The position numbers and the translations under genes are program-made. Positions 3,635 through 59,932 of a DNA stretch of 64,000 bases are shown here, piece after piece. Position 1 is the stretch's first letter, and every line of letters starts with the position of its first letter. The notes under the pieces are model-generated. The model searched no databases. It was not told where the DNA came from and was given only the letters and a program-made list of their open reading frames with translations. Source of the DNA: Eledone cirrhosa (lineage: Eukaryota); assembly GCA_964016885.1 (NCBI GenBank), contig OZ024744.1, positions 78,244,001 to 78,308,000 on the forward strand. The letters are read 5' to 3'.

Positions 3635-5830
3635 ATGCTGCCTAAAAAAACTTACAAAACTGGAGCAACAAAGAGGAGAGAAGCTAGACAAGCTGCCACG
3701 GAAGAATCTGCAAAGAAATGTCATCTAATCACAAGTTTTCTGAAAAGTCAACAGTCTTCGTCAACAAGTAGTGAGAGATCCCAAAGCAACGTAACTGCCG
3801 GAATTTCCGGCGAGTCGGTCTGGTCAGATGAACTGGAGAAACAGAAAGCACTGGAGAGACACGAGAACCTGACGTTGAAGATGCCTCAGGTCCATCGACT
3901 ATCTGAACAACCGTCGTAGTCACTGAAGATGTAGTTCCAACTGGGGATCCGAACTCAATAGAGGGGAAAATGGCTGTATCGGAATCTGAAAATGAAAATG
4001 ATTCAGAGGAAACTACATTGGCAAAACAAATCCCAGTGTATGAGCCAGTAGAATGCATGTTGAATTTACAAGATAAGTATCCAAGCGACCCGAAACATTT
4101 CGAGGGCAGACCATTGACGACACCTCTAATTCGCACCCTCATGGCCGTTGGTCCTTGTCAGCCAGGATTGAAAGATAATTTTGCTGATTTCCCTCTCGAC
4201 TCGAACCACAGAAAATTCAACATCAGTTGGTACAAGAGAAAGTGTGCTGGAATCCATAAAGTTGACCAACACTAGTTAGTATACTCTCCTGAATCCAACA
4301 GACTATATTGCTTTTGTTGGCTGTTTGCTGATAAAAATGCTGAATCTTACTCAAAGACTTGGGGTAATCCAGAGTGTGGATGGCAAACTTCAAAAAGGGA
4401 ATCGAAAAAATTGCCAAGCATGAGAAAAGTGCCATTCACATCAATGCACAAAAGCAATACTTCATGACAAAATATCGTTTGGACGCAGATAAAACAGTGA
4501 TCGATAACCTCATCCATGAAGAGAAGAATCGAATTGAACGAAATCGCCAGATATTGAAGCGAGTGCTTGATTGTACGTTATTTCTCGCAAAACAAGGCCT
4601 GGCCTTCAGAGGTCACAGGGAATATGTTGGACTTGGCGCCAAATCAGAAAATGAAGGAAACTATTGAATTGTTGAAATTGATGGCCAAGTATGATACGAT
4701 CTTGGAAAGCCATTTATTCTCGCCTGGGCGCACTAAAAGACAGCCTATGTACTTAAGTCCAAAATTACAAGACAAATTCATAGAATGCCTGGCAAACGAA
4801 TGTACTCAACAAATAATCACAGAAGTGAAAGCGGCAAAATACTATTCAGTCATCGTCGATTCCACAATAGACATTTCGCATCAGGATCAATGCTCTGTGT
4901 CACTGCAATACGTATCGAAAAGTGGCCATGCACAGGAGCATTTCCTGTCATTTTGTGAACTAGAATCAGCAGCCACTGAATCATTTTATGATACGCTTGT
5001 GAAAGTTCTTTTCCAGGATCTATCCTTGGATGCTCAATATATTAGGGGACAAGCTTACGACGGAGCGTCGAATATGTCCGGCCATATTTCTGGGCTTCAG
5101 GCTAGAGTTAAAGAGGGATGCTCTTCAAAAGCTGTTTATGTCCATTGTTGCGCTCATAACCTGAACCTGGTGTTAATCGATGCTAGCCAATCATCAGTGG
5201 ATGGTAAATTATTTTTTGGTATATTGGAGAGCCTGTATGTTTTCTTAACATCAAGCTTGCCAAGGCTGAAAATCCTCGAAGAAGAACAAGAAAAACTATT
5301 GACTTCAACGGTATTAACATTAAAAAAGACTCTCAGATACGCACTGGTTTAGTCACATTCAGGCTGTAGAGGCTACCATTAACAACTTACCGGCAGTAAT
5401 AAGTGCACTAGAGAGGATAATAAGTGGAGATGTTCACAACACTGCTCCAAAAGTATTAGCCGAGGCCAGAGGTTTGCTACTAAATGTGGGCAAGTTTGAA
5501 TTCATTTTCATGTTGAAGTTTTTTTAGAATTTACTTAAAAAGCACAATATTTGTAGAAGGAGGCTATCGACTTATATTCCGCGGACATCATGATTAAAAT
5601 GTAGTAAAAGAAATTGAATATTTTGACCGAACATTATCAGACGCTAAAAATCTTGCCGAGCAATGTCAAGTTTTAACCAGAGTTTACAACAGAAAAACGA
5701 AAAAGAAAAAAAAAGCGTTTTCATGACGAAAATGTACATAGAGCGAGAACTGGCTGAAAATATTGACTTCAGCATCGTGATTGAAACATTTTCTAAAGTA
5801 AAACATTGCAAATTAGAACTGTAGAACAAG
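3635..5830 (+). pseudogene. ZMYM1-like (TTF zinc finger/DUF4371) hAT transposase, frameshifted
   Basis: Motifs GPCQP, HEKS..H, LAKQGLAFRGH.E, YYSVIVDSTIDISH.DQ, GQAYDGASNMSG..GLQ and YVHCCAHNLNL are spread across several ORFs. Confidence 0.9.
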
Positions 5831-8114: not shown

Positions 8115-8325
8115 TTTAGGCACAAGGCCAACGATGGAGGGGGGGGGGTAAAAGTCGATTAAATCGACCCCGGTGCATTACTGGTACTTTATTTTATCAA
8201 CCTCGTAAGGATGAAAAGCAAAGCTAACCTCGCCGGGATTTGAACTCAGAACTTAAAGGGCCATAACTCTATGCCGCTAAGTATGTTGTCCGACAATTTA
8301 CCGATTCTGCCAAATCCACTGCCTA
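8115..8325 (-). mobile_element. SINE (tRNA-like head, ...tgagttcaaatcc..gcgagg..ctttgc.tttcatcc..gggtcgataaaataaagtaccag family)
   Basis: B-box-like GTTCAAATCC. Dispersed copies at about 23005, 30495 and 53125. Confidence 0.75.
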
Positions 8326-10797: not shown

Positions 10798-12573
10798 TCA
10801 TCATCATCATCATCATCATCACCGTTTTACGTCCGTTCTTCCATGCTAGCATGGGTTAGACGGGTTGTCCTGTTGTGGGCAGTGTCTGGTCAGCTGACCA
10901 TGCCTTGCTCATACAGGAACTGATTTTGGCTTGATTTCTACAGCTGGATGCCCTTCCTAACACCAACCTCATTTACAGTGAGTGCTGGGTGCTTTTCCGT
11001 GGTGCCTATACGTCCACTTTACAGTGTGGGCTGGGTGCTTTTTTGCTGTGGTACCTCCACGACCACCTTGCAGTGGGGGGTGTGGGGGCATATTGTCTAT
11101 ATGCTTCAGCTTGTACCCATGGGAGGTCGGGTACTCTGTATTACTGCGTGACGCTAGAGGTCACGGTCATGTGTCATTGCCTTTGGGAGGTGTAATTGGG
11201 TAAGGTCGGCTTCTATCACCTCATCCCAGGTCATCTTGGGTCTCTCCACTCCGCGGTTTCCATCGACTTCTAGTGCTCTGCACCTTTTTATGCAGCTGTC
11301 ATCCTTCATACGCATCACATGTCCATACCAACGCAACTGCCTCTCCTGCACACAGCATTTGATTCCTCTTATGATCAGTCTCTCTCTCAATTCATTTATG
11401 CTTTGTCGTTCACGTATATTACTGTTACACATCCATCGGAGCATGCAGGCTTCGTTTCTCTCTAATCTACGTAAGTCTTCCACCTTCAGCGCCCAGGTCT
11501 CACTACCATGCAACATTGCTGTTCGGATACACGCATCATACAGTCTGCCTTTCATTTTGAGGGAGAAGCCTTTTGCAGCTAGCAGTGGTAGTAGTTCCCT
11601 AAACTTCTTCCATCCCGTTCTTACCCTAGTTATTGTACTTTCTGAACACCCACCTCCGCTGCTAATTCGGTCACCTAGGTAGCAGAAGCTGTCTACTGTT
11701 TCTACAGAGCCCTCCCAGAGATTGGTGGTACTTGTTTCCTGTGGCTGTTTGCTGCTTGCTGTCTCAGCACAGCTGCTGCATGTGAAGCCTACATTCTTAA
11801 TTAAGCTTCCTGAGATCCCACTACATCTCTTGTGTACCCATTGTTTGCATTTGGGGCAGAGAATGGAGTTCCTACCTACACCTTTCCTACATACTGAGCA
11901 AGGCCATTTCCCTGAGGGAATCTGGGTTCTGTTTTCTCGTCTACTTACAAGGACCTTAGTCTTTGTCATGTTGACTTTGAGACCCTTTCTTTCTAGTCCC
12001 TGCTTCCAAGTTTGGAATTTATTCTCTAGTTCTACCATAGATTCAGCTATGAGTGCGAGGTCATCAGCATACAGGAGTTCCCATGGGCATCCGGTCTTAA
12101 ACTCCTCCGTTATTGCCTGCAGGACTATGATGAACAGGAGGGGGCTAAGAACAGAGCCCTGGTGGACCCCAACCTGTACGCTAAATTCCTCGCTATACTC
12201 ATTGCTAATCCTAATTTTGCTGACTGCTCCCCTATACATGGCTTGTACAGCTTTCACAAGCCATTCATCTACTCCTAGTTTTCTAAGAGCCCACCAGATT
12301 ACAGCACGTAGAACTCTGTCAAAGGCTTTCTCAAGGTCGACAAATGCCAAGTAGAGTGGCTTACTTTTAGCTAGGTACTTTTCCTGTAATTGCCTCACAA
12401 GGAAGAGGGCATCAGTGGTGCCTCTTCCTGGTACAAACCCAAATTGCATCTCGTCTATTTTCACCCGGTCCCTAATCAACTGTGCTATAACTCTTTCTGT
12501 TACTTTCATGACCTGGTCCATCAACTTTATACCTCTATAGTTTCCTCTATCTAGTGCATCGCCTTTACCTTTC
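10798..12573 (-). mobile_element. 5'-truncated RTE LINE (RT plus PHD-like finger), ORF still open
   Basis: ORF 11154-12629 carries KGKGD..DRGNYRGI, QFGF.PGRGTTDA, AFVDLEKAFD, GVHQGSVLSPLLF, LYADD, a C4HC3 finger and [10 protein letters not shown]. The 3' UTR and (CAT)n tail end at about 10798. Confidence 0.95.
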
Positions 12574-12610
12574 ATATATATATATTTTTTTAAACATCCT
12601 GAAATAAATT

Positions 12611-12662
12611 CCTTGCTGAAGAGTGCCAACCAGAGTCCCCAGGTATTGAAGCTTGGTAAAGG
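12611..12662 (+). ncRNA. Degenerate type I hammerhead ribozyme motif
   Basis: CCTTg CTGAAGA GTGCC..GGTAT t GAAG C ttg GTA AAGG. Stems I and II are present, but GAAA has become GAAG. Confidence 0.4.
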
Positions 12663-12907
12663 ATCTGGATTATGGTAGATAATCCTAGAGAAGCAAATTT
12701 AGTAGCACTAAATGAGGATAATAATAGGAATAATACTATGAAAATTACTTACCTTAATGGTCCAAAATTACCTGAGAACATATGACAGCCCCAAGTGACA
12801 ATGAATTGCTTGGCTGAAGAAGGGAGTGTGCTCAAAATATTTTGTTGGTTACTATAGCCAAAACAAGGAGTAAATATAATAGCTTTTCTAATGCAACCCT
12901 TTATTTA

Positions 12908-20759: not shown

Positions 20760-20798
<39 letters not shown>

Positions 20799-20856
20799 GT
20801 AAGGTACTCAATACATAGCAGAGTATAAATATTTAATATAGAAATGGCTTCTACAG

Positions 20857-20906
20857 GGCTTTCCTGGTGATTTCCTTCGAAAAACAGTTCTGGTCCTGTA
20901 GAAGCC
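20857..20906 (+). ncRNA. Hammerhead-like motif (family shared with 29286 and the 54.2-kb pair), degenerate core CTGGTGA
   Basis: GGCTTTC CTGGTGA ... gaAAAACAG ttctggtc CTGTA GAAGCC, within a hairpin formed by agaaatggcttctacagg / cctgtagaagccatttct. Confidence 0.5.
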
Positions 20907-21029
20907 ATTTCTTTGCGACCGATAGAGAGTATTAGCAACTGGAAAGACTAATGGAAACATTGTTTCCTCGGTCCGATTTGACGAAAGTCGATCGACTTAT
21001 ATTTATGTACCTTGTTTTGAAAGTGGTTG

Positions 21030-23195: not shown

Positions 23196-23282
23196 AATGC
23201 AGTTAATTGTGTACATAGTACAGAGTGAATCAATGATGACTTTGGTTGGAGACTGATGGTGTCATTAAATAGGTCTTGGTTA

Positions 23283-23815
23283 AAACGGTGATCAGGATGT
23301 TTCATTGAGAATCGATGACGGTACCAGCGAGATTTAAAGGTACCGTCATCGATTCTCAATTAAACGTCCTGATCACCGTTTTGTGACCACGTTCGCCAAC
23401 AAGACCTGGCAACTCCGTGAACGCAACCAACAGTTCACCTTGAAATGGAATATACTTTCCAGCGCAAGTGCATATCGGAGTGGATTGAAGTACTGTAGGT
23501 TATGTAACCTTGAACTCTTTTACATATTAAAATCCAAAAATACATTACTAAATGATAGAATCGAACGATCATTATACTGCAACCACAAACTAAAAGCTAA
23601 ATTCTCTCACTATAAAATAACTTAACATTCGAACCCGTAACTATAACATTGCTTTCTAGCTAACCACTTTCTCTTCCCCCACACTACAAGACAATACCTT
23701 GCTTATCACTATAAATGAGAACTTAGTGCAATTCGTAGATTACTACTATGAACCCAATGTTCACCCACCCCTTAGCTTTCGTCTGTCCCCTCTCTATCTC
23801 TCCCTCTCTATCAAT

Positions 23816-27199: not shown

Positions 27200-27203
<4 letters not shown>

Positions 27204-27428
27204 GAACGAGTAGGACCCCGACGGCTGAGCTCAAGCCGTTTCGACGGCTAATTCTGGACTAAAAAAAAAAAAATTTTTCTTTTCTTTTAGTCCAGAATTA
27301 GCCGTCGAAACGGCTTGAGCTCAGCCGTCGGGGGCCTACTCGTTCCTATTCCCCACTCTACTATCCTAAGTATTGAGTACTTTGGTGTGCGTTATGGTCC
27401 ACCTGGTTCCTTACCACATTTCCTTCGT

Positions 27429-27430
<2 letters not shown>
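27200..27430. mobile_element. Short dispersed repeat with a roughly 150-bp fold-back palindrome (27200-27349)
   Basis: ataggaacgagtagg..gctgagctcaagccgtttcgacggctaattctggact and its reverse complement. The tail 27350-27430 recurs inverted at about 35245-35316 and 53593-53700. Confidence 0.75.
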
Positions 27431-27459
<29 letters not shown>

Positions 27460-27518
27460 CAACGCTCTGATACCATCAACACTATAAACACAGAGCAAGC
27501 ATATCTAAGAACTGACTA

Positions 27519-27574
27519 ACTGCCTGATGAGGTCATAGCCATTCAATGGCTATCATCGAAATATATATAGCAGT
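27519..27574 (+). ncRNA. Type I hammerhead ribozyme
   Basis: ACTGC CTGATGA GGTcATAGCCAT tca ATGGCTATcATC GAAA TATATA TA GCAGT, with a 5-bp stem I and palindromic stem III. Confidence 0.75.
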
Positions 27575-27642
27575 AAATAAAGGATTATGAGTTCATGCAA
27601 TTGACTTATGTTTCGTCACTAAATGTATGTATATATATATAC

Positions 27643-29285: not shown

Positions 29286-29337
29286 GGTTTTCCTGGTGAT
29301 TTCTCCTGAATGAAACAGTTCTAGTCCTGTAGAAGCC
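29286..29337 (+). ncRNA. Hammerhead-like motif, core CTGGTGA
   Basis: GGTTTTC CTGGTGA tttctcctgaat GAAA CAG ttctagtc CTG TA GAAGCC. Confidence 0.55.
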
Positions 29338-36443: not shown

Positions 36444-39217
36444 TTAGAGAAATTGGGGAGGTGAGTTGAGTCCAAGAGGGGAATAGGACCCAAGACGGTG
36501 AATCAGACTTTGTTCAGTCCTGGTGCGCAAGGCCTGTGATCCATGATGTAAAAGGACACCCAGGACTGAAACATGTAGGGAAGAATGACCAGGAGAACAG
36601 AAATGACGGGCGACAGGAGTATCCAAACCGAGTCGTATGTCCCTCAAATGCTCGGCAAAACGATCCGCCATACGGCGTCCCGTTTGTCCGATATATAAAG
36701 ACCCACAAAGGGACCACCAGAGGGCATAGACAATGTGGATGGATGGGAAGGTGAAGAAATGGCGGATACGGAAAGACCCGTTAGGGCCTGTAAGAGTGGT
36801 GAGGGTGGAAATAAACGGACTGTGTTGAAGCGGGAACAGGAACAAGGATGAGAGCTGGGTGGAGTCTTGAGAGAGGACAAAAAGGAACTGCGAACCAGGA
36901 GGTCACAGAGATTGCGGGCGCACTTAAAAGCAGTAATGGGTGGGTTTGGAAAAAAGCGAGAAGTGACGGAATCAGAAGAGAGGATACAGAGGATATGTCG
37001 CCGGACAGGTAGGGTGATGGGGTGGTAGGTGAGAGGGAAAGGAACACGGGTGTTGGGAGGGCGGGGTAGAGGTGACAGGGCTGTGGTGCAGTCTGTTTCA
37101 CGGGCGCGGGTGAGAACAGCTTGGATCAAGGTGGGGGAGGATATCCATGCTGGAGGAAGCAGGAAGCCATGCAAAGGAAATGGGTTTTGAAATCGTCGTC
37201 CTGGCTTCAGAGTCGACGTAGACGGAGGAATTGGGAATAGGGTATGGAGTGTTTGGTGTGGGTTGGATGGGAGGAGGTGAAGTCGAGGTAAGATTGAGAG
37301 TCTGTTGGTTTAATGAAGATGGAAGTAGAGAGGGTGTGGTGAGAGTGATTAATAGATAGAGAGATATCTAGAAAAGCGACAGAAGAATCGGAGACGGAGT
37401 CGGTGAAATTGAGAGCAGGATGGAAAGATAGGACAAAAGAAAGAAAACAGTTGAGCTGTTCTCGTTATAGAGAGGTGGTGCTCATACAGTCGTCGATATA
37501 ACGACCGTATAGCTCAGGAGTCAGTCCAGCGTACTGGGAGAAGATCTGGGCTTCGACGTAGCCAACAAACAAGTTGGCATAGTTTGGACCCATTCTGGTT
37601 CCCATCGCTACCCAGAGATCTGCTGGTAAAATTCACCCGCAAAAAGAAAATCCATTGAGGGTGAGAACAAGCTCAGCCAGACGGAGAAGAGTGGTAGTGC
37701 TGGGGTAAGGGGTAGGGCGTAAATCTAAAAAATGCTGGAGAGTGCGGACGCCGTCATCATGAGTGATGACGGAATAGAGAGAAGTGATGTCCAGGGTAAA
37801 GAGAAGGTGGGAGGGACCAGGAGGGAAGGAGAAAGAGTTGAAGAGTCTAAGGGCATGGTTTGTATCGTGGATGTGGGAGGGGAAATTGATGACCAACGGG
37901 GCGAGGATGGTGTCTAAATATTCAGAAATTATCTCGGTGGGGCAGTTGAACGCAGAAACGATAGAACGGCCGGGATTATTTTGTTTGTGTATTTTGGGGA
38001 GGAAGTGGATGGTGGGTGTGCGAGGGGTGCGTACAATAAGGTTGGTGGCTGTGGGGGTTAGGTGAGAAGAGGAGATGAGCTCGTGGATGGTGGAGGACAC
38101 AAGTTGTTGGTAGCCAGGAGTGGGGTCGGAGGATAAAGGGCGGTAAAAAGGGTATTGTGAAGCTGGCGCAGAGCCTCAGCCCTATCGAGGTCAGCGCTCC
38201 AAACTACCACAACGCCACCTTTGTCAGCGGGTTTGATAAAAATGTTGTCATGACGCTGAAGGTTGCAAAGAGCGGAGAGCTTAGTCCGCGTGATGTTAGA
38301 GCGACGAGAATGCTGGTGGGAACGGAACCGATTCACAGTACGCCGGCAAGTATCGACAAAGGAGTCGAGGTGCTGAACTGGCCAGAGCTCGGCGTCCAAT
38401 GTGATTGCCGGTGACTGAGACGAGTGAAGTCATCCGTCTGTGTCGATGATGGCGTGTCGGGAAAAAAAGCTTTCAGCTTTAATCGACGGAAGAACCCTTC
38501 AATCACGGCACGTGTGTGGAACTCATTGCAGGTAGACGTGGTTGGTATAAAACGCAAACCACGGGCGAGGAGGAAGCACTCAGCTTCAGAGAGTGGTAGG
38601 TCCTGGGGTATGGTGACTACAGTGCAGGGACGTGAAAAAGTAAAAGAGGCGGAGGGGTCAAGGTGGTTGGGCAAAGCGTGTGCAGATTCAGTGGTAGCTG
38701 ACGGGATAGAGGGGTTAGAGTTGGAGGTGATATGAGTATGGGTGGTGACGGCAGGCGGGGAGCGGAGAGAGTCGAGTTTATGATTTTTTACGGAAGTGAG
38801 GAAATTGAAAAGGAGGCAATTGAGGTAAAGGATGAATTGGATAAGGGATTGGGCGAGGAAAGGGTGGCAAGTGGAGGAGAGATGGAGGTAGGCCTTGGGG
38901 AGATTTCGGTCAAGAGAACGGATTTGGGCGAGAGTTGATCGAATGGTCGCCCGCATGAGCTGGCGAGAGGAGCGGGTAAGGATGGGCAAAGTGGTGGGAG
39001 CAGAGTAAGAGGGGGGTGAAACTTGAGGCGGAAACCATGGGGAATGAGGTGGTGGTGGAGACAGTGACCCTAAAATGTGATGTGTCTGTTGTATCATGTT
39101 TTGGTGAAGATGAGGTTGGAGAGATGCAGGGAGGATTGGATGTATATAGGGTGAGAGGTTGGAGGAAGCGCTTAGAGTAGAATGGAGCTGGCGGAGAAAA
39201 GATTTGAGATTGGGCAT
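36444..39217 (-). pseudogene. PLE reverse transcriptase/GIY-YIG endonuclease ORF, disrupted
   Basis: Five overlapping minus-strand ORF pieces carry collinear PLE motifs. Confidence 0.9.
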
Positions 39218-39966
39218 ATTGAAAGTACTAGGGTGGGAGTGAAAAATAGATGGCTGAGAAGAAGAAGGTGGTGTAAGAAGATTGTAGTAGAGGAAAAGTG
39301 GTAGAGAGTCATGGAATATTTAAATGCAAATATATATATATTTACAAATTTCTACCCTGCCACCACCATCACCATCGCCAGATACAAACATTCAATTTAT
39401 TTCAATAGAAAGTCTGAACTTTGACACCTGAGCACATCAGCCATACTCTCATTGAACCAGAACGATTTCTCCTCTTCCCATTATCTTTTGTTTGGCACAA
39501 AACTCTCTATGAAGAACCACCTATATTATATGGCCAATCATGTGACTGTGAAAATGGAAATAAATCACACTTATAAAAAAACACCAATTTCAACCACATT
39601 TTTAAAGGCAAATACAAGAAGAAGTTTGTAGCACCAACTGGCACAAAATTTATTCAACCAAATTATTTTTTTTTAAAAACCCAGCAGTTCAAGCCACTCT
39701 TTCCCATAAAACAGAAATAACTTTCAAACACCAACCAGAGCAAGTAAAGCCACAAACCCTCCATCTCATTTTACTTTTGAAAAGCATAAGAACTGTGAAA
39801 CCGGTGACGGAAACAAATAAATATTATTAAAAAGACTCCAGTTGCATTTTCGATTTCTTTTCCTTATATTTTCACTCATGTAGGACATCTCGTTTTTTTT
39901 TATTTAAAAAAAACACCTCATTTTCTTATATATATATATTTATATATATATATATATATATGTATG

Positions 39967-40189: not shown

Positions 40190-43100
40190 CTGTAAAATGG
40201 AGGGGTAGGGAGGGCCTTTGAGTCTAGTAAGACATCCTCTCTAGTGCTGGTGGCACAAATAAAAGCACCCAGTCCATGCTGTAAAGTGGCACTGGTGTTA
40301 GGAAGGGCATCCAACCAGTGTATCAATGCCAAAACGATTATTAGCACAGCAACAAGTATATAGGAACAACAAAATATGAAGACGTCACATCTTAGAGTTG
40401 CAACACTTAATGTTGGCACTCTCAGAGGTAGATCTGCTGAAATAGCGGAGAGGCTGGAGAGAAGGCATGTGGATGTGTGCTGCGTGCAAGAGGTGAGATG
40501 GAGAGGTGCCTCTGAGAGATTAGTCGTAGGCAAACATCTTAGCTATAAGCTTTTCTGGGTAGGTAAGGATGATGGGTTAGGGGGAGTAGGCATTTTCCTG
40601 GCTGAGAGATGGATCAATAAGGCAATAGAGGTAGTTTGAGTTAGTAATCGAATAATTAAGCTTAGATTAGTTGTAGGTAGGAGACTACTGACAATCATCT
40701 CTGCCTATGCCCCCCAAGCTGGCCTAGGCAAAGAAGAGAAAGACTGCTTTTACGAGCAACTTTTACAAACAACCGCAATGACAGAGGACGGAGACATCTT
40801 TATGCTAGCAGGGGACTTCAATGGTCATGTTGGACAGCTCCAGGATGGTTACACTGGGGTACATGGTGGGCATGGTTGCGGCTCAAGAAATGAAGAAGGA
40901 ATGAGACTTCTTGAATTTTGTGATACAAGTACATTGACTATTTGCAACACTAACTTCCAGACACCTGCCAACCACCTAATAACCTACAAATCTGGCAAGC
41001 ACATAAGGCAGATTGACTTCGTACTAGTTAGGCAGCTGGACAGGCAGATAGTGTCTAATAATACCAAGGCATACCCTGGGAAAGAATGTACCCCACAGCA
41101 TAGGTTAGTCGTTAGTGATATCTCAGTAAGCAAGAGATGGAATGAGACATACAGGAAGGTGTGGAGAAGAAAGGTCTGGAAGCTAAAATACCTTTCACTA
41201 AAATACAAATTTAGGAAAGCCCTTCAAGATGTATATGACGAAAAAGAAGACGATTTAGAGACGTATGACATAGATAATAACTGGAAGTTCTTACGTGACA
41301 ACTTACTGCAGGCTACTGATGAAACTTGTGGCTGGAGCAGAGCTCCAACCAGACAGAGAGTGACCTGGTGGTGGAACAACACAGTAGATAAGGCCATTAG
41401 AGACAAAAGACTAGCATGGAAGGCTTGGAAAAAGGGTGGGAGTAGGGAAGGATATACAGCTGCTAAGAGAGAAGCTAGACGTCAGGTGTACTTAGCACGC
41501 AGGGAGGCTGAGAGTAGGAGGTTTGCCAATGTTCTGCGATGGGAAGATCAGAGGCGTGCAGTGTTCCACATTGCAAGGCAGTGTGTCAATGCAAATCAGG
41601 ATGTTGTTGGAGATAAATGTGTCCGGGATGATGCCGGTGTACTTAGTGTCACGAATGATCAGAAAAAGGAGGCCTGGAAATGTCATTATGAGAGACTGAT
41701 GAATGTGGAGAACGAATGGGAGAGAGAGAAATTACCTTTGGTGGATCCGACAGAGGGACCAGCTATTGAGATTGACGAATATAGGGTCCAAGAGGCGATT
41801 AAGGAAATGAAAAATGGTAAGGCTGCTGGACCATCAGGGATAGTTGCTGAGATGCTGAAGGCATCAGGGGACGTTGGCACTAAACTGGTTGCACGCATCA
41901 TCAATCAGGCTATATATGGTGGTGTGATACCCAAAGACTGGTGCAGCAGTATTCTCATAAATTGCTACAAAGGTAAAGGGGATGCTCTGAAGAGGAGCAA
42001 TTATAGGGGTATAAAACTGATGTATCAGGTTATGAAAGTGGCAGAAAGGATTTTAGCACAACTAATTAGAGAAAGGGTCGATGAGATGCAGTTTGGTTTT
42101 GTGCCTGGGAAGAGTACAACAGATGCCCTCTTCTTGGTGAGACAAATGCAAGAGAAGTTCTTAGAGAAGAATAAGCCACTATACTTAGCCTTTGTTGACC
42201 TAGAGAAGGCCTTTGATAGGGTACCCCGATCTGTCATCTGGTGTCCCTAAGGAAACTAGGTGTTGAGGAATGGCTTGTGAGGACAGTGCAAACTTTGTAC
42301 AGAGGTACTCTCAGTAAAGTCAGGGTATGAATGGAGTTTAGTGAGGAATTCCAGATACAAGTAGGAGTACTTCAAGGTTTGGTTCTCAGCCCGCTCTTGT
42401 TCATTATAGTCCTCCAAGCCATAATAGAGGAGTTTAAGTCCATGGGAATTGCTCTATGCTGATGATCTGGTTCTTATAGCAGAATCAGTAGAGGAGCTAG
42501 AGAATAAATTCTGGCTATGGAAACAGCAGTTGGAAGCAAGAGGACTGAGAATGAACCTAGCTAAGACAAAAGTGCTGATGAGTAGAAAAGAGGACAAAAC
42601 TCTGATTCCATCAGGGAAATGGCCATGTTCGATAGGCAGAAAAGCAACTGGCATAAATTCTATAAAATGCACACAATGCCGATCCTGGGTACACAAGAGA
42701 TGTAGCGGGATAGCAGGCAAACTAACAGGTAGGGAGAAATACGTATGCAGTAGATGTACAGGGAAATTAGACAGTAGAAGTCGCATTGATAGACACATTT
42801 TTCAAATGCAGGCGGGTGCTATAGAAGTGGTGGATAGCTTCCGGTACCTAGGAGATCAGATTAGCATGGGAGGGGGCTGTTCTGAAGCCACAGTATCTAG
42901 AATAAGGACGGGTTGGAAGAAGTTTAGGGTATTGCTTCCTCTGCTGACGAAGAAGGGTTTCTCCCTGCGTACGAAAGGCCGGTTATATAATGCCTGTGTG
43001 AGGAGCACGATACTGCATGGTAGTGAGACATGGACAGCAACTGCAGAGGATATGCGATGGCTGGAGAGAAATGAGGCAAGCATGCTCCGTTGGATGTGCA

Positions 43101-43450
43101 GTGAACGACCCAGCATGAATGTGTTGAGAGAGAAACTGTGTCTGAGAGGGATAGGATGTAGTGTGCGAGATAGGAGACTGAGGTGGTATGGAGATGTGAT
43201 GTGCATGGAGGATGGCCGATGGGTGAAGAAGTGCCAGGAAATGCCAGTTGAAGGAAGACGTGGTAGAGGTAGACCACAAAAAACATGGGCGGAGGTGGTG
43301 ACAACAGACCTCAGATCGCTGAAGTTCGCGGTGGAGATGACGAAGGACTGTGACAAGTGGAGAGATGCTGTGCTGAATAAGGTCCGTCCCACCCTTGCAA
43401 GCAGGGAAGAGTGGATGTAAAATGATGATGATGATGATGATGATGATGAT
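40190..43450 (+). mobile_element. Near full-length RTE LINE (APE endonuclease, RT, PHD-like finger), disrupted
   Basis: LRVATLNVGTL..VQEVRW, GDFNGHVG, IDFVL, QHRLVV, then GPSG, NYRGIKL, QFGF, DLEKAFD, LYADD and LRWYG. It has an in-frame stop at 40639, frameshifts near 42240-42450, and a (GAT)n tail. Confidence 0.95.
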
Positions 43451-53124: not shown

Positions 53125-53300
53125 GTTTCTAACAAGGCCAGCAATTATCGCAGTAGATTACTGGTACTTTATTTTATCGACCCCGTAAGGATGAAAGGCA
53201 AAGTTAACTTCGGTGGGATTTGAACTCACACCATAAAGGGGCATAACTCTATGCTACAAAGCATGGCGTTCGACCTTCTACTGATACTGCCAACCCCCCA
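53125..53300 (-). mobile_element. SINE (same family as 8115-8325)
   Basis: ctggtactttattttatcgacccc..ggatttgaactca. Confidence 0.75.
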
Positions 53301-53560: not shown

Positions 53561-53594
<34 letters not shown>

Positions 53595-53706
53595 CAAAGA
53601 AAGTGTGGTAAGGAACCAGGTGGGCCATAATGCACCAGAGTACTCGATATTTAGGGTAGTAGAGTGGGTAATAGGAAAAGAGTCAGGACCACGACGGCTG
53701 CTCTTT

Positions 53707-53769
<63 letters not shown>

Positions 53770-53772
<3 letters not shown>

Positions 53773-53985
53773 CAATATATTAATAAATAGAAACTATATT
53801 TATAAAACCATAATTATTTTATTATATATATTTCAAGGGCAACCTAGGTAGATTATGGTGCGCTTTCATCAGATAATTTTATCTGATGAAAGCATCCCAT
53901 AATCTACCTTGGTTGCCCTTGAAATATATATAATAAAATAATTATGGTTTTATAAATATAGTTTCCATTTATTAATATATTGTAT
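53770..53985. ncRNA. Fold-back palindrome with two divergent hammerheads
   Basis: Centre ..TCATCAGataa tt ttatCTGATGA.. at about 53877. Each arm reads TTAT CTGATGA AAG..CTT GAAA TATATA TA ATAA. Confidence 0.75.
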
Positions 53986-54180
53986 ATTTACTCCACTAAT
54001 CTGTTGAGTGCTTTATATCAGTTATAAAAAATGTTTAAGCTTGTTGAATCCCAACAAATTAAATATAACCTCTGCATATATATATATATTTATATATATA
54101 AGTTCTGGGTTCAATTGGGGGTAACCAGAGTAAGTAAGGTACTCAACACATTAGTGGAGTGTATACAATAAAATTAATAT

Positions 54181-54290
54181 AGAAATGGCTTCTACAGGGT
54201 TAAAACTGTTTCATTCGAAGGAAATCATCAGGAAAGCCCTGATGATTTCCTTTGAATGAAACAGTTCTAGTCATGTAGAAGCTAAATTTC
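54181..54290. ncRNA. Fold-back palindrome with two divergent hammerheads (family of 20857/29286)
   Basis: TCATCAG (54225-54231), gaaagcc, then CTGATGA (54239-54245). Both arms continue tttcctt.gaat GAAACAG...TGTA GAAGC. Confidence 0.7.
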
Positions 54291-54306
54291 TCTCTATATA
54301 TATGTG

Positions 54307-54374
<68 letters not shown>

Positions 54375-54520
54375 AATTAAAATACTAGAGTGTGTTGGAG
54401 TTAAACACCCTCTTCATATTATAGAAATGACAGTAAAGATATAGCTCAATGTAATTAAACAGAGCCGAAGAATTATGAAAATAAACCAAAGAAGCCTTCA
54501 ATACATCAAAAGTCTTTATT

Positions 54521-54560
54521 AGCCAACAATGTTTCGTCCTATTAAGGACTCATCAGGGCA
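54521..54560 (-). ncRNA. Type I hammerhead in the Naiad-like 3' pLTR
   Basis: Minus strand: TGCC CTGATGA GTCCT taat AGGAC GAAA C att GTT GGC. Confidence 0.85.
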
Positions 54561-55001
54561 AGTAAAGCTATAATAAGCACTATCAGCCAATACAAGCCAA
54601 AAACTCAGAAGAATATGGAGTATACATACATTAAAGCATAGGAAAATTATCAAAGAAGTGAATAACATTTTGAACCATATTACAAATATAGTACAATGCA
54701 AAAACTAAAACTAAACACAAGTGGTGATATAAAGCGAGAATTACAGTACGATATATAATATAATATATAATATAATATAATATAATTGATAATGATAATA
54801 ATAATAATATTAAAAGGCCCAATATACATATATATATATATAGTATTAGTTATACTATCTATGGTTATGTAAATACAAAACCTTAAGCAGTTATAAGTAT
54901 TTTACATACACCCTAAATAGTGGTAGGCAGTAATGTATTACTACTTTATTACCAGTAAGTTAAGTAGCTCAATGTAAAAACATCAGATGATTTACAGAGC
55001 A

Positions 55002-55287
55002 ATATGAGATATAAGAATCAAAGAACTGTTCAAAACATTATTGTGCTTACAGCTGTTTCCTCCAAACCGAGGTTTGGATTCTTCGGAGCAATTTATTAAT
55101 GCATGGACAGTTATATGACCTCCTTTTCAGCCGAGAGACATACCGGTATGTCTCTCGGCTGAAAAGGAGGTCATATAACTGTCCATGCATTAATAAATTG
55201 CTCCGAAGAATCCAAACCTCGGTTTGGAGGAAACAGCTGTAAGCACAATAATGTTTTGAACAGTTCTTTGATTCTTATATCTCATAT
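55002..55287. ncRNA. 286-bp palindrome with two divergent variant-core hammerheads (55044-55090 minus, 55199-55245 plus)
   Basis: The 143-bp arms meet at TACC|GGTA (55144/55145) with no loop, and I see no mismatch between them. Confidence 0.85.
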
Positions 55288-56711
55288 ATATATATATATA
55301 TATATACATATGTACACATATATCTATATATATCAATACACATATCCATCAATACAAACACAAACTAACACTTATTAAGAGTTTAAATATAAATATAATA
55401 CATATATTATTTACAGTATAAAATGATAAAGAAATGAATAAAAATAAACATATAATATATAATATACTATATAATTATATAATTTATAATTTATAATCTT
55501 GCACAAACAATATAAATATTACAATAACACTATAATAACAATATTATAATATATTGGCATATAACTTAACAAATCATATAAAGTTACACACAGGGTGAGA
55601 AAAAAAAATATCATACAGAACTAAATTGTGTTGAAAAAATTGTGCTGGAAAAATATCTATACCATTGTAAGAAAACAGACGGAGGTTGAGTATTTATACA
55701 ATTGGTATAAAATAAATATTATCTAAACATTATAAAAATTATAAAAATATAAACATATTACAGAATTTACAAAATTTAACATAAGGGTACATCGAATAAT
55801 CGGTAAATATTTAAGATCTATAATACGATTACATAAAATGATATGATATAACAACTTCAATATCAAATAACAAACATAGTATAGTATACATAATTACATG
55901 GTTGGTAGACAGACATATGTGAAAAAGTGAACAAGAACCAGACAGAAACTACGCACGGTAGTGCAAAAAATATAAATAAAATCAACCGGAGATCGAAAAA
56001 CAAAAACAAAAACATTTACTTAGGTGTCACAAGCAGTTAAGTAAAAAAATTAGGAATCAAACCCGGATAAATGACTAGAAAACCTTATTAAATTAATTTA
56101 ATATTGAAAGTATTTAAAATACATAATAAGTCAATACAAAATTAGCTATGGTTTAAGTAATCAAAATCTCTAAAGTTTAAGATATCTCAATAAAAATATC
56201 CAGAATAGAATGAAATATTCTACTTTCAGTTGAATAACGTTATCTAATAAACGGACCTTAAATAGAGCTATGGTAGGCCAATGGGGACAGAAAAAAGAAA
56301 GGTATGGAGGATACGAAGGAGCATAAAATCATAATCAATATACTGTATAATACAATAGAAAGGAGCATAAAAGGGAATTGAATATAATTATAGTATAGTT
56401 GAAGGGGCGAATGACAAGTGTGTGTGTGTGTGGGGGGGGGGGGTTAATTATCTAAATGAGAATCCAAATAAAATAAAATAAAATAAAATAAAATAAAATA
56501 AAATAAAATAAAATAAAATAAAATATATAATCAGATATAAACTCATAAGGTGTTAATAGTGAAAATATAATATTTAAGAAGATAGATATGGTATGGTAGC
56601 CAAAAGACTATGAAAGCTAGATCGAAAAGCTGTTAAAAACCAATAATAATAATGATAATGATGGTGGTAAACAAAATGAACCTAAACAAAAAAGATAAGG
56701 GAATATAGCAG

Positions 56712-59399
56712 CTAATGGATACAATTTACACAACCAGAACTTTTAGGTTTAAAATAAAAGTAAGAATTAGAAATGGCGTGGGGGCAGGAAGAAAATATTT
56801 CAGACTTTCTATTAAGTAAGAGTTCCCTAGAGAAAATTATAGAGTGGGTCTCAAGGATACAGAGATTTCAGAATTTAGCGTGTGTTGATAGGTTATTAGA
56901 GCGTGCTACTATTCGCCAATTAAGGCTATATGGTATATTAGCCCCCTTAAGATCCCAGATATGGTGTGCTAAAGAAGTAGAATTCTTAAACTTAACATGT
57001 TTAAAATTAGAGATATGAGAATTAAACCTAGTCTTAAAAGTGTTAGATGTTGAGCTTATATATGTGCTATTAGAGGAATTAGTTTTAACTACACAAGCAT
57101 AAACAATATTCCTAGAGAGGCAGTTACCGTTTAAAGGGCAGTTAACACTCACTCTACAGTTACACTTCCGGGTGCTATTGATCGGCTGAAGTAGTGATGC
57201 ATCACTCGTAGGGTTACTCTGAGATAAGGTCTGCTCAGGTGGCAAGGCATTTATGGATCTATCCAGACTAGTAGTACGCAGAGAGGAGTAGCCGTCCCTA
57301 ATTTTCCTATTGTTAGTGCTAGCTAAATGAGAACTAATATTAGGGGTGGTAGAGAATGATAGTTTAATTACATTTTTATTAAAAATACCATGGTATTTAT
57401 TAGTAGGAGGGAAATTTTTCTTTAAGATAGAAAAGAAAGACCTAGGGATGTTAGTTAATACTTCCTGATCATATGGCGGGTTAAAATAAGTATTTAGTCT
57501 CCTTCTATTTCTATCCTTACCAACTCTACCGTTATCTAATATCACCTTATTAAGATTTGGGTTACTACAAGGACTAGTTAAAACCACATTATTAGAATCA
57601 GCCGAAACCCCATTGAGTCTCCTTCTGTTTCTACCTTTAGTATATCTGCTGCTATCTGGAATCATATCAAAAGGATTAGGGCTAATAATAGGATCAGTAG
57701 AAACAACACTATTAGAATTAGATTTAGCAAAAGCATTACCACTGAGTGAGCGCTCAGAGCGCCCAACTTGATCCCTAGAACTATTAGATTCCCTATTACG
57801 AATCTGGTGGCTTAATGTATGGATGGGTTCGGATACACCTATGTGATTTCTACGATTCTTATGCTTTCTACTCCCATTCATGGCCATATTATGGGATATT
57901 ATGTTATTATTATTATATGTAAGCGGAGACTTTCTAAGGTTACTATTATTATAATGTAATTTACCAGAGTAACCGGAGTTAGCTAGGGCATTATTATAGT
58001 ACTCTGTATGTGCATTAAATATTCCTATGTCCTTAGAGAGTGTGGAAATTCTATTAGATACACCATTAATTATAGAGCTTATCATAGATTTGGGGTGGTT
58101 AGAATTGGGACTAACATAAGAGAGTATTTCATTAGGCTTATGGAAGAGTTTAAAACTATTAGTGACCAAGTCCAAAGTCACATCTAAAAAGTTGACCGCT
58201 CTATCATTTCTATCCATCGTGATCGAAAGGTTAAAGCTTTTAAAAGATTTATAAAGTTTCTTCCTATTATGCTCGATGTTATTGGTGCTGGAGTTAATCA
58301 CAAACAATGCATCGTCACGATAAAGTCTGCCTTTAAGGTGCAGAAAGGTAACATACAGTTCATTTAGGAGGAACAGCCCAATAAGATCAGTTACCTGGGC
58401 CGAATCACTCGAACCCATTGTAACGTCGAAATTATTGGGCGTGTTTTTACGAGTCCAAAATGTATCCTCGAAATTGATGATAGTTCTACGGGCTGATAGT
58501 ATAATATCTACCTGCGATCGTGTAAGGCTAGACACTCTCATGGCCATAATTAAGGCTTTATTAAGGAGGATAGGTGAAATCGATGTGTAATAGGCATCAA
58601 TATCAAACTGGATAAACCTACTAGATTCAAGTTTATTAATACCAGAGAATCAATCTATAACCTCCTGAGTGTTCCCCCATAGATTAAAATTAACCTTCTC
58701 CCTAACGGCTGGTATAATAAGGTCAAGGATTTTCTTACTAATTATAGCTATATCAGACTTAGAAGGACAGATGAGTCTAACAGAGGGATTACTAATGAAG
58801 TCTACCTTATGACCCTTAAGAGTGAATCTCGGTTCCCTAGGGTAATATGGCTGGGTATACTTATCAAGGCCAAGGTCCGAGACTATCTTAAGACCCTCAT
58901 TATTGATATGATCCAAATTATCTTGCGTAGTCTTTTTATAATTTCTATGCAGCTCCTTATAAATAAAATTACGGTAAGCACTGTAATCCATAGAGTATAG
59001 ATTCTTAGTCTTATCAGCCGGGACAAGAATAGACTTATTCGCTCTAAAATCCTTAACAATATTTTTAAGTCTAGACTGGAACCTGTCAAACTTATTATAA
59101 TTTCCATGTCTATTATATGGCCTATACTTAATATTTTTGACAAGGGAAAGTAAATCATTTTCAAAATTATCTATTAGAACATTATGTGGTGGGCTCTTAT
59201 AAGTTTTGAAGCCAAAGTTATTGAAAGGAGTTCTATGCCTGGGGTCAGTCCTATTCCTATTAATATCAAAGTGGAAAGCACGCCATCTAATCCTTTTTAC
59301 GAAGGAGTTAACACTAGCAATTAAGAGTTTTTCATAAGTATTTCTAGAGGGGATGGGAATGTTCTTCAGAGATAAAGGCAGGTAGCTCTTTGTTAGCAT
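56712..59399 (-). pseudogene. Naiad-like PLE RT-GIY-YIG polyprotein (about 895 codons, one frame, two in-frame TGA)
   Basis: SLKNIPIP..KRIRWRA, PADKT.N.Y, RLICPSKS, FIQFDIDAYYTSI, FDVTMGS.D.A, YRDD, VNFLDVTLDL, FNPPY, CNCR...CPLNGNC, IVY..YIS..TFKTRF.H, *NLC..E..LLN.K.E..CPH. The two listed ORFs are in the same frame. Confidence 0.9.
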
Positions 59400-59651
59400 A
59401 CTGTCAGATATATATAAAGGCCAAAATACCAGTATATAGGAGGAAGCTCAACCAATCGGGAGCCGTAACAAGAATTAAAATACTAGAGTGTGTTGGAGTT
59501 AAACACCCTCTTCATATTATAGAAATGACAGTAAAATGTTATTCACTTCCTTAGCAATTTTTACTTGATAATTTTCCTATGCTTTAATGTATGTATACTC
59601 CATATTCTTCTGAGTTTTTGGCTTGTATTGGCCGATAGTTATAGCTTTACT

Positions 59652-59691
59652 TGCCCTGATGAGTCCTTAATAGGACGAAACATTGTTGGCT
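59652..59691 (+). ncRNA. Type I hammerhead in the inverted 5' pLTR segment
   Basis: TGCC CTGATGA GTCCT taat AGGAC GAAA C att GTT GGC. Confidence 0.85.
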
Positions 59692-59932
59692 AATAAAGAC
59701 TTTTGATGTATTGAAGGTTTCTTTGGTTTATTTTCATAATATATATATATATAATATATAGAGAAGAAAACATGAAAGAGTATGTTTTCAATTACAGAGG
59801 GTAGAAAGCCACTAGAGAGAAAAACAAAATCTACGAAAAATATGGGAAATACATTATAATTAAAGAGATAAATTAAAATGCATAAACCCACCTTTATAAT
59901 GTTGTTTCATTTGATATATATATATGCGCGTG

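Follow-up and report, generated by a model that had tools for sequence, protein, structure and literature searches.

The three palindromes P1, P2 and P3 in a 64,000-nucleotide stretch of the Eledone cirrhosa genome (hereafter the window) are best read as 3' ends of Penelope-like elements (PLEs) that carry a hammerhead and were inserted head to head, each within one (TA)n tract and likely through twin priming on both target strands; we put the probability of this reading at roughly 0.7. As judged from their sequences, P1 and P3 are 5'-truncated 3' ends of autonomous PLEs of the Hydra clade, and P2, a short copy, represents a third hammerhead family that likely belongs to the same clade. The cluster is real, known in kind and abundant, and represents ordinary transposon debris; PLE copies inverted head to head, and paired hammerheads on opposite strands, are already known from the literature. 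Its value is mechanistic. One arm of such an insertion is terminal, the other ends at an internal site and the two sometimes have no overlap, a junction rule which separates twin priming from self-priming, names two priming sites and makes the mechanism of PLE inversion testable. Young, high-copy families with long tails supply a clean genomic form of this rule.

The coordinates of the described features are collected in Table 1. Three palindromes, each with two motifs pointing outwards from the symmetry centre, had been proposed in the first-pass annotation, and both the inverted repeats and the cores were confirmed. The hammerhead-like cores, two per palindrome, were located by a descriptor scan and constrained folding, the decayed P2 core at 54239 by constrained folding only. 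The palindromes are also non-coding and placed beside (TA)n, as had been stated: all three adjoin (TA)n, and none is overlapped by an ORF of at least 120 aa in the window ORF list. Each is the overlap part of a longer, one-sided insertion, reaching 54075 (+) for P1, about 54100 (-) for P2 and 54822 (-) for P3, and the other arm of each insertion continues up to a (TA)n run. The tail-less arm of P1 terminates at the internal site of family 1, the same end being found in 19 of 21 inverted partners; the P2 tail-complete arm starts on the 5' side of the helix I base and meets its partner through a 3-nt microhomology; the P3 junction has zero spacer and falls at a CG dinucleotide. P3 is nested in a TA run of a family-0 3' UTR, and other family-0 copies cross this site without an insert. 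The whole region 53567-59740 is a chain of five insertions (F4 tail, P1, P2, family 0 and P3) with TA runs between them, in which the family-0 member is a full-length element on the minus strand with a long 3' UTR, bracketed by two Rfam-scored hammerheads. A selenocysteine reading of the two TGA stops in its ORF was rejected, since they align with W and C of an intact relative and were taken as decay.

Table 1. Features of the palindrome cluster and related motifs (window positions, unless loci are named)
Feature	Position	Strand	Remarks
P1 inverted repeat	53770-53876/53879-53985		arms 107 nt, 95% identical
P2 inverted repeat	54188-54282		84% overall; mismatched pairs 7/47, 2 of these being the loop
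P3 inverted repeat	55002-55144/55145-55287		arms 143 nt, 100% identical, no spacer
Hammerhead-like cores	P1 53872/53883; P2 54231/54239; P3 55086/55203	-/+ in each	
F4 (fourth hammerhead-type family) 3' tail fragment	53567..53700	-	TA-flanked; 87.5% to 27322-27455
(TA)n target tract	53710..53769	.	sequence
P1 tail-less arm, family 1	53770..53876	-	core 53872, predicted cut after 53823
P1 tail-complete arm, family 1 3' end	53879..54075	+	core 53883, predicted cut after 53932
(TA)n-like spacer	54076..54100	.	common to 3' ends of P1 and P2
P2 tail-complete arm, short family-2 copy	54100..54239	-	core 54231, predicted cut after 54193
P2 tail-less arm	54238..54290	+	decayed hammerhead, core 54239
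(TA)n tract	54293..54371	.	sequence
Family-0 3' pLTR, full-length Hydra PLE	54372..54670	-	hammerhead core 54556
P3 tail-complete arm, family 3 3' end	54822..55144	-	core 55086 (U4C), predicted cut after 55048
P3 tail-less arm	55145..55287	+	core 55203, predicted cut after 55241
Family-0 RT + GIY-YIG ORF, decayed	56745..59447	-	2 in-frame stops, ~58650 and ~56868
Family-0 partial 5' pLTR (tail)	59470..59535	-	100% identical to 54372-54437
Family-0 inverted tail-less arm	59537..59740	+	hammerhead core 59656
Rfam-scored family-0 hammerheads	54502-54572; 59640-59710	-; +	HH9
U4C family-3 hammerheads	55203; 43583		
Recurrent short motif	53970-54015, 54135-54179, 27355-27400, 54950-54985, 54437-54460		
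Family-2 promoter-like boxes	loci L219-L248		upstream of hammerhead

The first-pass annotation took the palindromes to be non-autonomous modules, which does not hold for P1 and P3, as these are truncated ends of ORF-bearing elements. Family 3 has a 4.2-kb unit with an intact 832-aa frame (locus L032), whose 3' end is matched by the P3 arm. In family 1, the endonuclease lies 0.9-1.2 kb upstream of the UTR probe, in the same sense, in 6 of 20 loci; a near-whole ORF is present in locus L271, and an RT with a C-terminal GIY-YIG domain is seen in L271/L254. The family-0 ORF shows 59% and 42% identity to that of family 3. RWR and DKT (in place of DKG) occur in families 0 and 3, while the CxCx5C linker, and CxxC and CxH around a conserved E and N, are found in families 3 and 1; family 0 keeps the linker, and its CxxC carries a stop. 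Families 3 and 1 thus show the Hydra pattern, without CCHH, and both further marks of the clade, a hammerhead in the pLTR and insertion into (TA)n, are present. On these motifs, families 0, 1 and 3 appear to encode Hydra-type proteins. Among four tested proteins from 305 homologues found (120 of them listed), two matched RVT_1 or GIY-YIG; a Pfam scan of the window ORF and the L032 protein gave nothing significant, the L032 protein matching neither of these two models, and a PDB search returned 0 matches. Asparagine-rich insertions are present between RT and endonuclease (L032:3069-5564; window 57000-57950) and resemble those of Adineta Penelopes (PMC3846280).

For family 2, no ORF was found in the 1.5 kb upstream of 30 long copies. 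An endonuclease match in locus L108 was set aside as its parent, being located beyond TA tracts and other repeats, and the notion that this family has no longer form was dropped, since long copies exist. Family-2 copies often end in (CA)n or (TA)n. The family is assigned to PLEs because of its shared tail motif, target and geometry; P1 and P2 have a tail motif in common (83% over 47 nt). This similarity and the Hydra-type proteins of families 0, 1 and 3 contradict the earlier description of three unrelated families, while the PLE origin proposed with it, and the link to the inverted 5' segment, are supported.

The Hydra clade has been characterized by hammerheads, (TA)n targets and the RWK, DKT, CxCx5C and CxxC/CxH features (Craig et al. 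2021, PMC8557442), and inverted 5' copies and tails are given there as standard PLE features, with the origin of PLE tandem and inverted structures named as an open problem. Compared with that account, the elements described here are alike in the C-terminal GIY-YIG domain, RWK/RWR, DKT, CxCx5C, and CxxC and CxH around E/N, as well as in pLTR hammerheads, (TA)n targets and partial tandems with an inverted 5' copy and a tail. They differ in size, the units being about 4.2-4.7 kb with long 3' UTRs against generally <3 kb, in tails of 60-185 nt as opposed to 30-40 bp for PLEs, and in copy numbers that reach thousands per family.

The junction rule is clearest in family 3. All 22 head-to-head insertions with both outer ends visible (13 + 9; L027, with one end beyond the locus, is left out) have one terminal and one internal arm, the 3' terminus falling at reference 4200-4205 and the internal, TA-like site at 4006-4021. 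When the tandem cases L031, L032 and L178 are left out (n=19), the start of the tail-less arm lies 5' to that of the complete arm in 9 insertions, the arms are without any common sequence in 7, and the two are symmetric within 10 nt in 5. In family 0, visible partners end at 54472-54482 in 10/10 cases, with two more cut by the locus edge; four of these ten tail-less arms reach further 5', and none is symmetric. An inverted partner is present in 21 of 28 unique family-1 loci, 19 of them tail-less; the other two insertions (L036, L039) have two tail-complete arms and stand against the end rule. This family also shows a 5' hot spot about 80 nt upstream of the core. In family 2, a junction was found in 22 of the 30 best-scoring and 17 of the 29 unique pattern-picked loci, mostly at positions 1 and 9 in either order, with some arms non-overlapping; the common form joins positions 1 and 9 via a 3-nt microhomology and has a 5-nt loop.

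Across families, the internal site is TA-like, located 60-185 nt upstream of the 3' terminus and fixed per family, while the junctions differ per insertion. Both outer ends of the insertions join (TA)n, within which TSDs are unreadable; the arms meet directly or with 0-9 nt of microhomology, and TA between them is usually absent. Many copies have no inverted partner inside a 3-kb locus. Adjacent motifs no more than 10 kb apart, taken from the first 100 listed for family 3, form 16 divergent, 0 convergent and 6 tandem pairs, and the divergent ones are spaced 108-6220 nt apart, with 3 of 16 under 300 nt. Given this range and the scatter of family-0 junctions over more than 1 kb, the earlier suggestion that integration folds back near the ribozyme fails as a general rule; it stands for family 2, in which the 5' end of short copies lies at helix I. 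In families 0 and 3, divergent pairs are no commoner than generic PLE 5' inversion would give, an outcome that had been set against the first reading when it was made.

According to the twin-priming model, the element endonuclease would introduce a nick into each strand of (TA)n, which is self-complementary; of the two 3'-OH ends, one would prime reverse transcription at the terminal site of the RNA and the other at the internal site, and the two cDNAs would extend towards the RNA 5' end. Their ends would then be joined by microhomology, or one would fold back and anneal to the other; if both stopped near the same place, a near-perfect palindrome would arise. The presence of a hammerhead in both arms follows from its position immediately upstream of the internal site. 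Twin priming is known from LINE-1, where the second target strand primes internally and the inverted 5' part is joined by microhomology; there, the two parts are non-overlapping and the internal site is variable, in contrast to the fixed site and the often overlapping arms, and hence palindromes, seen here.

The clustering of family-2 junctions at helix I is probably due to the RNA beginning at this point, as promoter-like boxes precede it in long copies: by eye, a CCAAT box was recognized about 95 nt upstream of the helix I base in 21 of 30 and a TATA-like box 30 nt upstream of it in 24 of 30. An extra G, also scored by eye, is carried by 35 of 63 TA-joined short copies of this family, where in-register long copies have a pyrimidine. 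Such a G is as would be expected for a capped RNA start; reverse transcriptases can copy the cap. Ribozyme cleavage was considered as a cause of the junctions and rejected, as only locus L009 starts near the cut site.

The proposed steps have biochemical parallels. A Poseidon PLE protein, predicted to be a dimer, cleaves and extends both strands of AT-rich DNA in vitro, starts reverse transcription at two sites bounding the genomic tail and uses uncleaved RNA (PMC11167929). The PAc Poseidon system (Frangieh 2024, PMC11167929) resembles ours in the two RT start sites around the tail, AT-rich cleavage, cleavage and extension of both strands and uncleaved RNA. It belongs to another clade, its tail lies inside the ORF start, and head-to-head insertions are not derived in the part of that publication available. 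No twin-priming model for PLEs was found in the literature, as judged on titles and abstract openings, with older PLE-structure papers outside the scope. A broader proposal, to which we give slightly less than even odds, makes twin priming on both strands obligatory for the integration of Hydra-clade PLEs and starts it from two fixed sites on the RNA. This would explain in one step the PLE 'tail', which has long lacked an explanation, and head-to-head repeats; in this genome it would have given rise to hammerhead motifs on the order of 10^5 and to back-to-back ribozyme hairpins in the tens of thousands, a leading source of potential dsRNA for editing and small-RNA pathways.

The strongest alternative is single-strand TPRT followed by self-priming, in which the 3' end of the cDNA folds back, copies itself and joins the target by microhomology at the internal TA-like site. 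It is close to the proposal of Arkhipova (2013, PMC3846280) for Adineta vaga Penelopes, where head-to-head palindromic junctions and a tail on one inverted pLTR were described; inverted pLTRs, junction palindromes and a tail on one inverted pLTR are shared with our elements. Near-symmetric junctions (family-2 positions 1/9; the five family-3 cases within 10 nt), P1, P2 and P3 included, can also be accounted for by simple fold-back. However, self-priming, perhaps on antisense RNA as considered there, is unable to give arms without common sequence, which need two primed cDNAs, and for this reason (7/19 in family 3) fold-back of one cDNA is contradicted as the sole route. Nor can it give a tail-less arm that reaches further 5' (9/19 in family 3; 4/10 in family 0), and zero-spacer centres such as that of P3 leave no loop. 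As a complete account it is thus unlikely, and it probably operates as a sub-step of the twin-priming model.

Two successive, independent insertions of opposite orientation at the same TA site are a very improbable explanation. The families do accumulate in TA tracts, and another family lies within 3 kb in 11/27, 9/27 and 8/23 loci of three families, a count of 0 of 29 for family-2 loci being disregarded as a probable artefact of the overlap filter; nevertheless, 30 of 120 arbitrary 3-kb tiles already contain one of six families, and this background weakened the idea of strong clustering. Moreover, the arms are joined as described above, usually without intervening TA, and the partners are of the same family, exclusively head-to-head (16 vs 0) and of complementary end types.

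Extremely improbable, in our view, is a reading of the palindromes as ambisense ribozyme RNAs under selection, whether viroid-like rods or self-silencing switches, that propagate as palindromic units. Hammerhead viroids and ambisense viroid-like RNAs carry a hammerhead per polarity in a rod-like fold, with distinct ribozymes that fold during synthesis on circular RNAs. P1-P3 likewise have a hammerhead motif in each polarity and a rod-like fold, centres of the P2 type number 2,583, and family-3 subfamilies have conserved both the U4C core and a palindromic loop in helix III. Unlike in viroids, a single motif is duplicated here and its antisense copy is made first: with both motifs facing outwards, any transcript runs through the antisense arm before reaching the sense one. 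Folding predictions put the penalty for adopting the hammerhead at 3-11 kcal/mol for a single arm and at 47-83 kcal/mol once the palindrome is considered, whole or nascent, so that read-through RNA is predicted to form a hairpin blocking both ribozymes. The earlier idea of a viroid-like RNA with ribozymes working in both polarities is therefore disfavoured by modelling, and also by the independent decay of the arms. In 21 family-2 insertions, divergence is 8.6% between the two arms of an insertion and 9.6% among insertions, and private variants (86) outnumber shared ones (7), which argues for a separate origin of each insertion and subsequent neutral decay. In addition, junctions and arm ends vary per insertion, and tandem monomers are absent at the P1-P3 locus. 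The palindromes are likely dead by-products, functionless as ribozyme pairs; if read-through RNA exists, their hairpins would be abundant dsRNA and possible incidental ADAR or small-RNA substrates. Among the sequencing runs searched, no RNA library was listed as carrying the stretch.

An assembly or library fold-back artefact has almost no probability: although the P3 arms are 100% identical and no contig or read was found across the P3 centre or the exact P1-P3 loci, on which contigs and RAD-seq reads, derived from many copies, are uninformative, the arms of P1 differ, as do those of P2, the P3 inverted arm ends at the same site as in 21 other family-3 insertions, and family 3 is young (18/40 matches full-length and 100% identical). 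Independent data speak for the class of structure, as joints between family-2 copies on opposite strands occur in raw DNA reads of two other samples, with 17 and 11 starts, and an X1 contig crosses a P2-type centre; the exact loci are not spanned.

The hammerheads themselves are non-canonical. Identified earlier as type I, they have this topology in five of six motifs, but none of the six was scored by Rfam up to E=10; the only Rfam-scored hammerheads are the neighbouring family-0 pair (HH9, 29.1 bits vs a gathering threshold of 52), and the miRNA-model matches in the same scan represent (TA)n and hairpin noise. P1 has a helix III of 2 bp and the triplet AUA, P2 a U opposite U at the helix II base and, in the right-arm motif, lost stem pairs, and P3 the core CCGAAGA (U4C). 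The latter is found in 99 of 100 listed family-3 cores, out of 4,322 exact matches, and is retained by subfamilies of family 3 that have diverged by about 20%, while their helix III loops vary yet stay self-complementary. Because of this retention of core and loop, the ribozyme appears to be constrained in the parent elements, and the self-complementary loop would fit dimeric cleavage. The U4C variant occurs in a viroid with lowered in vitro activity (PMC3088659), and PLE hammerhead monomers have been reported as inactive or weak (PMC4209133). The PLE minimal hammerheads of the latter source are similar in the long helix II, short helix I, extra base after A9 and palindromic helix III, P3 being a close fit. 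Departures from them are the fixed U4C core of family 3, the 4-bp helix III with an 8-nt loop of family 2, and families 1 and 2 being without G10.1-C11.1. For ribozyme specialists, the interest lies in a U4C core fixed in a family with so many exact matches and intact ORFs, and in the very high density of hammerheads.

Dual hammerheads 100-700 bp apart on opposite strands were described in Schistosoma (Cervera and De la Pena 2014, PMC4209133). Non-LTR retrozymes are presented as pLTR derivatives with tandem units and at least two same-strand hammerheads (bioRxiv 10.64898/2026.07.22.740005). Derivation from pLTRs, the type I hammerhead topology and PLE dependence are shared with our families, and solo monomers exist; P1-P3 differ in being single head-to-head insertions without tandem same-strand motifs. 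Each palindrome has one hammerhead motif per strand, and the same-strand pair with tandem units that defines a retrozyme is absent. A short tandem unit in locus L178 (C1:41418990-41422009), composed of a family-3 pLTR and the first 175 nt of the ORF and lying head-to-head, is a candidate non-autonomous, retrozyme-like derivative.

A first look yielded at least 1,932 family-1, 2,998 family-2 and 2,370 family-0 candidates, and exact patterns 1,031 family-2 heads, the 4,322 family-3 cores and the P2-type centres mentioned above, with 0 in each reversed control. Loci taken from DNA searches represent the top 30-40 copies by score rather than a random sample, and the sets picked by pattern (L094-L123 and L149-L178) comprise the earliest matches along contig C1. 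A background sample of 40 stretches of 10 kb (400 kb), taken at round-number positions on large contigs, contained 43 palindromes, 14 of which overlap the window's families, and 34 hammerhead motifs (0 in the reversed sequence), with 5 divergent and 1 convergent hammerhead pair within 700 nt. A rough extrapolation gives some 250,000 hammerhead motifs in the genome and some tens of thousands of divergent pairs. The three-family cluster is denser than average and of the same kind as loci L205 and L208, the latter containing two palindromes as well as two copies of family 2 in a span of 760 nt; it stands above random sequence, as the reversed control shows, but is ordinary for this genome.

Of the single-arm copies listed earlier in the window, those at 29286 and 43579 were confirmed, while 20857 proved to be a head-to-head junction (20791-20858 antisense and 20854-20912 sense). 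The window consists mostly of repeats. A fourth palindrome, belonging to F4, occupies 27200-27455; its junction lies inside helix II, each arm having the 3' hammerhead half only, and F4 is very common in the arbitrarily placed genome stretches. A fifth hammerhead family, TA-flanked and with its core at 27524 (+), is present at 27460-27600 and has further copies in loci L208 and L212. Another palindrome of 100 nt, unassigned to a family, lies at 23282-23382. The short motif between the internal site and the 3' end recurs in all families and may be where the element protein binds. At 36444-39319 (-) lie fragments of another type of PLE ORF with GIY-YIG (Pfam E 0.035), which, by their motifs, are presumably Poseidon-like. 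From their translations, we take 535-939, 3907-5352, 11154-12698 and 40640-43420 to be hAT-like transposase fragments and RTE-type LINE ORFs. Finally, a tRNA-headed SINE (Rfam tRNA, 26.8 bits) was recognized at 53132-53300, with copies at 8177, 23007 and 30501.
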